Source of the DNA: Escherichia coli
GTDB lineage: Bacteria > Pseudomonadota > Gammaproteobacteria > Enterobacterales > Enterobacteriaceae
DNA length: 64,000 nucleotides
Strand: one strand, 5' to 3'
NCBI RefSeq assembly: GCF_003334405.1
Contig: NZ_QOWM01000002.1
Position numbers: made by a program. This document shows, one piece after another, positions 1 through 3,000 of this stretch. Each line of letters starts with the position of its first letter. Position 1 is the stretch's first letter.

Positions 1-3000
1 AGAATACCGGTGTTCCTGGCAATATTATGGGGCATACCACCCGACGGGTGATCCGTGCTCCTGCTGCAGGCATTATGCGATCCAACGTGAAATTAGGCGA
101 TCTGGTGAAAGAGGGCGATGTGATTGCCTGGATTGGTGAGCATGAAATTAAAGCACCGTTGACGGGGATGGTGCGTGGCTTGTTGAACGACGGCCTGGCA
201 GTGGTTGGTGGTTTTAAAATTGGTGATATCGATCCTCGTGGTGAAACCGCTGATTTCACCAGCGTTTCTGATAAAGCCCGGGCGATTGGCGGCGGCGTAC
301 TTGAGGCGTTAATGATGTTGATGCATCAGGGCGTGAAAGCGACAAAAGAAGTGCTGGAAGTGGCTTAAATGAAAATGGCCGGATGGTATTACCCACCCGG
401 CCTGAGACTGATGACAAACGCCAAATTGCCTGATGCGCTACGCTTATCAGGCCTACAAGTGCATTGCAATCTATTGAATTTGCGATGTTTTGTAGGACGG
501 ATAAGGCGCTCGCGCCGCATCCGGCATCAACAAAGCGCACTTACTTGACAATCTTTGGCCGGATGGTATTACCCACCCGGCCTTTAAATTACTGACAAAT
601 CACCGTTCCTGTTTTGCCTTCAATCCCTTCTTTCGCTTTGCTCAATACGGTAATCAGTGCTTCACGACCTGCGCGAGAGCGAGCAAACGAGGCGGCAGCT
701 TCCACTTTAGGCAGCATAGAACCTTTCGCAAAATGACCTTCTTCGATAAAGCGTTCAGCATCACTTAATGACAGGCGATCGAGCCACTGTTCATTCTCTT
801 TACCGAAGTTAATGGCCACTTTTTCTACCGCAGTCAGAATGATCAGCATATCGGCATCAATCATTTCTGCTAAACGGGCGCTGGCCCAGTCTTTATCGAT
901 AACCGCGCTGGCACCACGCAGATGGTTACCTTCACGAATAACAGGGATACCACCACCGCCAACGGTGATCACCACCTGACCTGCATCTACCAGAGCTTTA
1001 ACCGTTTCTTTTTCAATGATATCAACCGGTTTTGGCGAGGCAACAACACGGCGATAGCCGCGACCAGCATCTTCTTTCAGAGTGTAACCCTGTTTTGTCA
1101 GTTGCTCTGCTTCTTGCTCGGTAAAGAACGAACCGATCGGCTTGGTCGGGTTGAGGAATGCCGGATCGTTAGCGTCGACTTCGACCTGAGTAACCAGCGT
1201 TGCTACAGGTTTATTAATGCCCCGAGAAAGCAGTTCTTCTCTTAAAGCGTTTTGTAGATCGTAACCAATATAACCCTGGCTTAATGCAACACAGACAGAC
1301 ATCGGCAGCATTGGCGAGTGCGCTTCAGTTTTTGCGGCAGCTTCAAAGGCCTGGTTAATCATGCCCACCTGCGGCCCGTTACCATGAGTGACGATAACTT
1401 CATGTCCCTGGGCAATTAAATCAACAATTGCCTGAGAAGTAATTTTTACCGCTTTCATTTGCCCGGCCAGGTCATCGCCCAGCGCATTCCCGCCCAGGGC
1501 GAGAACAATTTTCTTACTCATTTTTCCTCACTCATCATTCTTGATTGTGTATAGATCCCTGGCAGTGGTTAGAGCACGGGAGGGACAAACGGTTTGCGTC
1601 GCAGGAAACGACCTCGCCCGGCTTTGCCTGTAAAGGTGCCGTCACAGAAAATCGTTTCACCACGGGATAAGGTTCTGACAATCGCGCCCTGACAGGTAAA
1701 ACCCTCCCATGGCGAGTAGTCGGCGTTGTCGTGGAGATGGCGATGCTGAATTTGTTGGCTCTGACGTGGGTCGATAATCACCACGTCGCCGTCGGAACCG
1801 GGCGCTAATAATCCTTTTTGCGGCCACAGGCCAAACAACCTGGCGGGCATTGCGCTGGTTAATTCAACAAAGCGTTCCGGTGTTATACGTCCCGTCATCA
1901 CGCCACTGGAAAACAGTAACTGCATGCGGTTTTCCACACCGGGTAAGCCATTTGGGCAGCGACTGAAATCGCCTTTAGAAATTTGCAGGCGTTGAGCCAT
2001 CGAGAAGGTGCAGTGATCGGTTGCCACCACGTCAATCGCACCATCGCTGATGCCACACCACAGTTTGTCCTGCTCGCGTACGTTACGCAGCGGTGGGCTA
2101 AGAATGAACTTCATGCCATCTTCTGTATCGTAACTGCGTTCGTCCAACAGGAGATATTGTGGGCAGGTTTCAACCCAGACTGGCTGGTGATTCGCACGGG
2201 CAAGACGCAGATAATCCAGACCTAAGCCGTTAGACAGGTGCACGATATAGAGCGGGGCGTTACCGGCAATTTGTGCCAGGTTAATCATGCGGGCGATGGC
2301 TTCCGCTTCGCATTCCAGAGGGCGACTCAAGGCATGATAGCGCGGCGCGGTTAACCCTGCGGCGATAAATTCCGCCCGCTTGCTGGCGATAGCCGCATCA
2401 TTTTCCGGGTGCACGGTGGTCAGCGCGCCGGATTCATGCAAGCGGCGTAATGCCTGCAAAACCTCGTCATCGTTGAGTTTGTATTGATAGGTTAAATAGA
2501 GTTTAAAACTGCTCAGTCCTTCCTCGACCATCATCGGGATTTCGTCGAGGATTGCGTGATTAATGTGCTGGATCACACCGTGAAAGCTGTAATCGATGAC
2601 CGCTTTATGGGCGGCATAACCACGATAAACCTCCAGTTGATGGCGTAACCGACAGCCGTTTGGGCCAAATCCCATATGGTCAATAATGGTTGTTGTACCG
2701 CCACATGCAGCTGCGCGGGTACCGGTAAAAAAATCATCACAACTGCGCGCGATGCCGACATCAATATTGAAATGCGTATGGACATCCACGCCGCCAGGGA
2801 AAACGTAACAGCCAGTGGCATCAATTTCTTCATACGGGAGCTGCGGCGAAATATTGTTGCCCAACTGGCGAACAATCCCGCTTTCAATCAGCAAATCCTG
2901 TTTGGCTTGTCCATCTGCGTTAACGACAGTGCCGTTTTTGATCAATACGCGCATAGCAAACTCCAAAAACCCTCCGGCGAACCGGAGGGGAATAAGTGAA

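Follow-up and report, generated by a model that had tools for sequence, protein, structure and literature searches.

A BIME-1 between two copies of a hairpin

The convergent genes yqeB and yqeA of Escherichia coli are separated by a 220-bp gap in the 64,000-nt stretch analysed here (the window; assembly GCF_003334405.1, contig NZ_QOWM01000002.1). This gap carries a doublet of repetitive extragenic palindromes (REPs), a bacterial interspersed mosaic element (BIME) of the BIME-1 type, set between two exact copies of a short hairpin. The 3′ end of yqeB lies at positions 27-368 on the plus strand, with its TAA stop codon at 366-368, and yqeA, an arcC-like carbamate kinase gene, lies at 589-1521 on the minus strand, with its stop codon at 589-591. 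These assignments come from the open reading frames and from RefSeq annotation, which for yqeB is that of identical sequence in K-12, BL21 and other strains; the homologues of yqeA are named carbamate kinase (PF00696). The whole region is 100% identical to K-12 MG1655, BW25113 and BL21(DE3).

A preliminary description of this DNA had pointed to a BIME-type REP cluster in the convergent gap, with two exact copies of a 26-mer bracketing two inverted REPs. Alignment and annotation bear this out: GGCCGGATGGTATTACCCACCCGGCC occurs exactly at 377-402 and 557-582, and the 26-mer is the core of a longer exact direct repeat of 28 nt (the 26-mer with a T on either side), TGGCCGGATGGTATTACCCACCCGGCCT, at 376-403 and 556-583, with 180 nt from start to start. 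The repeat reads TGGCC...GGCCT. No further match to the 26-mer was found in the window at up to three mismatches, nor any in 100 shuffled sequences. As RNA, the 26-mer is predicted to fold on either strand: the plus strand forms a stem of 6 + 3 bp interrupted by an A·C mismatch (−16.7 kcal/mol), and the minus strand a 10-bp stem with a G·U pair at the same position (−22.6 kcal/mol). The left copy (376-403, stem-loop 377-402) is preceded on the plus strand by the complement of a U-tract, ATTTTCATTT, read on the minus strand at 367-376. The right copy (556-583, stem-loop 557-582) is followed by TTTAAATT.

Between the two 28-nt copies lies a complete 152-bp BIME-1 (404-555), consisting of a Z1 REP, an L linker and a Y REP within two terminal segments. 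We set the boundaries of these parts by alignment with the BIME-1 copies at uspB-pitA, mog-satP, entD-fepA, aspC-gloC and yajD-tsx. The left terminal segment (404-427, plus strand), (T)GAGACTGATGACAAACGCCAAATT, starts with GAGACTGATGAC; it is conserved in seven loci, agrees with the junction frequencies and paralogue matches described below, and bears an imperfect terminal inverted repeat, T[G/C]AGAYTG.TGA. The Z1 REP (428-456, plus strand) is a 29-nt palindromic unit in inverted orientation ('iREP'), with its CTAC end at 453-456. A 35-nt L linker (457-491, plus strand) with the conserved core GCAAT.T.TTGAATT joins it to the Y REP (492-525, plus strand; 34-35 nt), which stands in REP orientation and starts with GTAG at 492-495. 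The right terminal segment (526-555, plus strand), ATCAACAAAGCGCACTTACTTGACAATCTT, deviates in its last 2-3 nt from the consensus ...CAACAATCTGA. The lengths of the two REPs agree with those reported for z1 (29 nt) and y (35 nt) (Corneloup 2021). An inverted-repeat search placed the REP arms at 443-458 and 490-505, and both REP units are invariant or nearly so against six other BIME-1 loci. The doublet can fold as one long hairpin; as single-stranded DNA, 370-590 reaches −46.2 kcal/mol (z = −5.6).

The element thus has the features that define BIME-1, namely a Y and an inverted Z1 REP joined by a long L linker, as a single unit at gene 3′ ends; here it forms no tandem array and is extragenic. 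Paralogues elsewhere align to the insert from base 1 or 2 through base 151 or 152, at 84-90% identity. As their similarity ends exactly where the 28-mers start, the insert is one whole unit. An integration host factor (IHF) site is frequent in the L linker of BIME-1, and an IHF-consensus-like site with one mismatch, ATTCAATAGATTG, is present here at 467-479 on the minus strand; such a match alone is not above chance, with 103 matches in the window against 87 expected. Rfam returned a sub-threshold match to the small-RNA (sRNA) family ES036/CssrF (449-491, minus strand; 36.3 bits against a gathering score of 37.6) and a partial match to naRNA4 (495-531, plus strand). These families are evidently built on REP sequence, and the matches are uninformative.

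The hairpin is single where the element is absent

To place the repeat in the species, we searched 5426 complete E. coli genomes with high sensitivity. The 26-mer was found at 6815 places in 5167 genomes, once or twice in each and never more often, and always at yqeB/yqeA. By place counts, 1648 genomes carry two copies, in agreement with the 1649 of 5426 that match the whole 471-bp query and are hence filled. In most other genomes the flanks match over 291 bp instead, exactly 180 bp less. In the presence/absence comparison proposed in the preliminary description, roughly 70% of E. coli genomes lack the BIME at this gap, and the hairpin is single there. In alignments, O157:H7 and the B2 strain BEN2908 read ...ATGAAAA-TGGCCGG...CCGGCCT-T(T/A)AAATT..., with one hairpin and no BIME. 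The BEN2908 hairpin reads ...CCATCCGGCC, and its stem is perfect on both strands.

Because empty alleles keep one copy and their gap is 180 bp shorter, the flanks are best read as a local terminator hairpin duplicated as the target site. The target-site duplication is 27-28 bp, and its length is set by the hairpin, with no fixed stagger. Judged by its distribution, the 26-mer is present as two copies of the locus's own predicted terminator hairpin and is not a dispersed repeat. The preliminary description had taken the 26-mers to belong to a normal E. coli repeat architecture between genes, and had named uniqueness to this locus without REP-family similarity as what would speak against that; across 5167 genomes the 26-mer occurs here only, and its sole REP likeness is an 8-nt GCCGGATG shared with the Y REP stem (377-402 against 513-525). 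The outer stem of the hairpin, GCCGGAT...(A/C)CCGGCC, resembles the Y REP stem. Its end, GGCC^T, is also that of the inverted-REP cleavage site (CC^TAC). By imitating a REP, the yqeB/yqeA hairpin may have promoted targeting; the hairpins targeted elsewhere, described below, are not REP-like.

One filled allele shows later change. In E. coli 2014C-4423, an A-to-C change (ACCCCCCCGGCC) is common to both hairpin copies, with one additional C in the right copy; the BIME is identical to that of K-12, and the right flank is of a non-K-12 haplotype. This pattern suggests gene conversion between the copies, recombination in the flank, or a homopolymer sequencing error.

The same footprint at other BIME-1 loci

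Three further loci were compared in filled and empty states over the same genomes. The gap uspB-pitA is filled in 1941 genomes, with an empty allele 173 bp shorter; mog-satP is filled in 467 (170 bp shorter) and aspC-gloC in 2811 (171-172 bp shorter). At all three, the empty allele consists of an A-tract, one hairpin and a T-tract, and the filled allele of an A-tract, the hairpin, a BIME-1, the hairpin again and a T-tract. At uspB-pitA, the right hairpin copy (stretch L005, 401-425) lacks the 4-nt loop TAAA of the left copy and of the empty alleles, by either secondary deletion or imprecise fill-in at insertion.

We then surveyed BIME-1 more widely with an L-linker pattern scan over one genome per bacterial species. 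The scan gave 114 stretches, mainly from E. albertii, E. coli, E. whittamii and Pseudocitrobacter, which consensus alignment and merging of orthologues reduced to 55 independent full-length copies in Escherichia and Pseudocitrobacter. For each, the 40 nt to the left were compared with the 40 nt to the right, and 2970 mismatched left/right pairs served as control. At 31 of the 55 loci, the flank-to-flank repeat exceeded the 99th percentile of the mismatched pairs; a score of at least 12 was reached by 23 of 55 loci and by none of the 2970 pairs. When the flanks were taken 50 nt further outward at the same loci, no locus (0/55) gave a repeat.

The repeats at these 31 loci are locus-specific, 9-28 nt long (median 19), and abut the element: the distance is 0-2 nt on the left in 31/31 and 0-4 nt on the right in 29/31. 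Hairpin folding is predicted for 23-24 of them, an A-rich stretch precedes the left copy in 23 and a T-rich stretch follows the right copy in 20. In several older pairs, loop and stem differ between the copies, both of which still fold, as in TGCCCTGCGTAAGCGGGGCAT and TGCCCTGCTTTCGCAGGGCAT. This comparison shows that at most loci the BIME-1 stands between two copies of one predicted hairpin, the sequence of which differs from locus to locus.

Three other accounts of such an arrangement can be set aside. Insertion into a hairpin loop would split the hairpin rather than duplicate it; site-specific recombination with an attachment site borne by the element disagrees with repeats that are locus-specific; and convergent selection for two terminators disagrees with copies that share sequence besides structure.

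Junctions and a proposed route of insertion

The junctions between element and hairpin are as regular as the repeats. On the left, a T stands before GAGAC in 25 of 33 loci, and the base in front of this T is C at 15 loci and T at 12. At the right end, the first base of the bottom strand is T in 36/36 loci; the base before it is T in 19 and C in 12. The element is hence symmetric, with 5′-T[G/C]AGAYTG.TGA on both strands, and on each strand the base before it, at the 3′ foot of the target hairpin, is a pyrimidine. An intrinsic terminator is a GC-rich stem that ends in C and is followed by a T-run, and a bidirectional terminator offers such a site on both strands. The top-strand site in the window is CCGGCC^T. 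Cleavage by TnpA_REP (YafM in K-12), the REP-associated tyrosine transposase (RAYT) and an HUH enzyme, has been mapped to CC^T and C^T sites adjoining the REP hairpin (Ton-Hoang et al.). The window itself holds no RAYT gene. Because the pyrimidine-T junctions match this preference, TnpA_REP is the most likely candidate for the agent of insertion.

The gap very probably held at first one GC-rich hairpin with an A-rich and a T-rich side, the predicted shared terminator of convergent yqeB and yqeA. From this state, we propose the following route. Both strands would be cut at the 3′ foot of the hairpin, immediately 5′ of a T, as the palindromic terminator presents a hairpin and a T-run on each strand. 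Together these would leave 3′ overhangs of hairpin length. The 3′-OH of each overhang would be joined to the 5′ T of one element strand, which fits HUH chemistry, with the enzyme on the 5′ phosphate. The 3′ ends of the element would then prime fill-in of two single-stranded gaps of hairpin length, and the hairpin would be duplicated. Such a route would explain a duplication of variable, structure-defined length, exact abutment of repeat and element, and pyrimidine-T junctions.

Overall, we consider it very probable that the single hairpin of the gap, with its A-rich and T-rich flanks, was duplicated by insertion of the BIME-1, through what we infer to be a RAYT-type mechanism. The descriptive part, duplication of the target hairpin, we hold with high confidence; the enzymatic part is an extrapolation from the junctions. 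The general proposal, that BIME-1 and REPINs (REP doublets that form a long hairpin) spread by structure-guided insertion into intrinsic terminators, with TnpA_REP cutting and repair duplicating the entire hairpin, is put forward tentatively, as a possibility that we would not yet bet on. If true, it would be an undescribed transposition footprint in which the length of the target duplication equals the palindrome of the target, and the first direct sequence evidence of the way in which REP doublets select new sites and enter them. It would also account for REPs at gene 3′ ends and inside bidirectional terminators.

Insertion, excision or host repair

Several observations weigh against this interpretation. 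The right junction in the window is atypical, with ...CAATCTT instead of ...CAATCTGA, so that the bottom-strand junction is A^A and not a pyrimidine followed by T. The link to RAYT rests on a dinucleotide preference, and IS200/IS605-type HUH transposition, the closest relative of RAYT, makes no target duplication. Of the 55 loci surveyed, 24 have no clear repeat; these include one-sided hairpins, elements with truncated ends and repeats that have decayed, which makes 31 of 55 a minimum. One empty allele (H26) has flanks 100% identical to those of K-12, and in some genomes the empty state may have arisen secondarily, by precise excision between the repeats, instead of being ancestral. Finally, the searches yielded no near-identical copy that could have been the donor: among the other BIME-1 copies found, identity reaches at most ~91%. 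An absent donor is odd for a recent transposition, given that the insertion at 404-555 is polymorphic and apparently young.

The distribution of alleles bears on the direction of change. The filled allele is nearly invariant, with 1630 genomes at least 99% identical over the insert. Among the listed genomes, it occurs in K-12 and B laboratory strains and in other human and animal isolates, and the hairpin is single in those of O157:H7, O111:H8, O103:H2, ST131 and BEN2908. Trabulsiella odontotermitis and Pseudocitrobacter have the same gene order, and their gap holds one hairpin of different sequence. At mog-satP, the hairpin of the empty allele, TCCCCCCGAGCGGGGGGA, is intermediate between the diverged filled copies TCCCCCCAAGCGGGGGGA and TCCCTTCGAGCGGGGGGA, as expected of an ancestral empty site. 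The search for an outgroup within Escherichia led to YqeA relatives at 95% protein identity, which are ~81% identical in DNA and carry another REP doublet. Together, the allele comparisons point to insertion as the derived state, with a BIME-1 that entered a lineage including K-12 and BL21.

The polymorphism could instead reflect mainly precise excision, with an old filled state from which empty alleles arose by repeated deletion between the 28-bp repeats. Repeats 180 bp apart around a palindrome are good slippage substrates, the H26 flanks are those of K-12, and BIME-1 copies differ by ~14% pairwise although the allele looks young; a 1997 abstract reportedly mentions 'excisions of a whole BIME-1'. 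However, excision leaves the origin of the duplicated hairpin unexplained, and it does not account for a single hairpin in other genera. Nor can the empty hairpin of mog-satP be derived from either diverged filled copy alone, and the filled allele, besides being near-invariant, is unseen in the listed O157:H7, B2 and B1 strains. We therefore regard excision as the main source of the polymorphism as unlikely. Insertion and excision are not mutually exclusive, and later precise excision between the repeats is plausible.

A second alternative accepts the insertion and assigns the duplication to the host. For instance, a structure-specific nuclease would cut the base of an extruded terminator cruciform and the staggered break would capture a BIME fragment, or a replication fork halted at the hairpin would switch template. 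The length of the duplication tracks that of the palindrome, as cutting at a cruciform base predicts, and the HUH relatives make no duplications. Against this, the element has exact, symmetric ends, both strands starting with T[G/C]AGAYTG over 33-36 loci, which argues for site-specific cleavage of the donor and not for random capture, and the junctions fit the C^T preference of the enzyme. A host-made duplication is thus improbable to a similar degree. That the 26-mers belong to a dispersed REP- or BIME-associated repeat family, and that hairpin-REP-REP-hairpin is a standard module, is hardly credible: the hairpins are GC-rich palindromes like REPs, share GCCGGATG with the Y REP stem and end in GGCC^T like an inverted REP, but the 26-mer is confined to one locus at no more than two copies per genome, empty alleles retain one of them, the hairpins at other BIME-1 copies all differ, and mismatched flank pairs have no similarity.

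Probable consequences for the yqeB and yqeA transcripts

Duplication by insertion would alter the 3′ ends of both genes. The only consensus intrinsic terminator that the terminator scan found in the gap is the left hairpin on the minus strand, with its stem (402-377) followed by ATTTTCATTT; a GC-rich stem-loop and a U-run make the 26-mer a predicted intrinsic (Rho-independent) terminator in this direction. On the plus strand, the hairpin is a weak candidate terminator, having the A·C mismatch and the tail TTTAAATT. The terminator role suggested in the preliminary description agrees with the terminator-like form of the hairpins. In empty alleles, the single hairpin has a T-rich tail on both sides.

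After insertion, each gene would retain its proximal hairpin and lose the U-tract. Transcripts of yqeA would meet the right hairpin first, followed by AAAGAUUG without a U-run, and would cross the BIME to reach the left hairpin and its U-run. Those of yqeB would meet the left hairpin followed by UGAGACUG, with UUUAAAUU only after the right hairpin. Because both transcripts would cross the BIME before a hairpin with a U-tract, the element is probably part of both 3′ untranslated regions (UTRs). This agrees with the reported position of REPs, which sit in 3′ UTRs and of which 78 lie inside 306 predicted bidirectional terminators. REPs may be associated with bidirectional terminators because such sites are chosen as targets, and not because REPs themselves terminate transcription. 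Each insertion would rewire the 3′ ends of two genes, and the insertions are polymorphic within the species, the four loci being filled in 9-52% of genomes.

Relation to known systems

The element itself is ordinary and long known, identical in kind to the BIME-1 (RIB, RIP) of E. coli, and its presence/absence polymorphism among strains has been described. Its mode of insertion is compared here with several systems. REPIN-RAYT systems share with it a REP doublet that forms a long hairpin, and the ends and junctions seen here fit the C^T preference. The published models, however, have single-strand excision and integration into REP or BIME targets with no duplication, whereas the targets here are non-REP terminator hairpins that are duplicated. 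In the REPIN families of Pseudomonas and Stenotrophomonas, conserved As and Ts at the ends of the elements have been interpreted as co-opted terminators. The 'peel and paste' transposition of IS200/IS605 is alike in hairpin recognition, HUH chemistry and cleavage at the hairpin foot. It differs in inserting 3′ of a short target motif on one strand without target duplication; duplications here measure 28 bp at yqeB/yqeA and 9-28 bp at 31/55 loci.

Bacterial miniature inverted-repeat transposable elements (MITEs), such as ERIC and Correia/NEMIS, are likewise small and non-autonomous, with imperfect terminal inverted repeats and flanking direct repeats. Their duplications are short and of a fixed length set by a DDE transposase, whereas the 9-28 nt found here track the target hairpin. 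In IS1397 and IS621/IS110-family elements, which insert into REPs, and in class C group II introns, which insert after terminator stem-loops, DNA secondary structure likewise guides the choice of intergenic targets. Their duplications are short or absent, and the hairpin is not copied as a whole. The 'insertion with long target duplication' described for restriction-modification genes of H. pylori (Nobusato et al. 2000) is also an insertion polymorphism with an unusually long duplication; its inserts are gene-sized and, as that work is cited elsewhere, tied neither to a hairpin target nor to a defined element end.

In the searchable literature, which did not include the primary papers of 1991-1999, where the flanking repeats may already have been described, we found no account of a BIME-1 between two copies of a locus-specific terminator hairpin, of an empty site with one copy, or of junctions that fit the cleavage preference of the transposase. 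REP, BIME and REPIN sequences are the most abundant non-coding repeats of E. coli, and papers from 2011 to 2021 call their spread 'unresolved' or say that it 'remains to be elucidated'. The three-part footprint seen here, with a duplicated hairpin, a T start on both strands and a pyrimidine-T junction, would make this question experimentally addressable.

Other arrangements in the survey

Some genomes carry tandem BIME-1-like arrays of 4-5 units with a period of ~115-125 bp (L118, 7849-8555; L125, 4745-5439; also L115 and L097), which were left out of the flank statistics. L097 has two units, and the same terminator hairpin recurs after each of them. Good BIME-1 copies also appear on short contigs labelled Desulfosporosinus, Bacteroides and Collinsella (L028, L029, L090, L091), most likely through enterobacterial contamination or mis-binning and not as real occurrences. 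Three further stretches (L063, L093, L094) were rejected as chance pattern matches, with alignment scores of 33-42.

The relatives with yqeA at ~81% DNA identity (L126-L128, 3434-3540) hold a different REP doublet in the orthologous gap, CTTATCGGACCTAC ... GTAGGCCCGATAAG. Its two flanks carry TCGCCGGCGG and TCGCCAGCGGCG, respectively, possibly a short palindromic duplication. The same terminator gap was apparently colonised there independently by another REP type.

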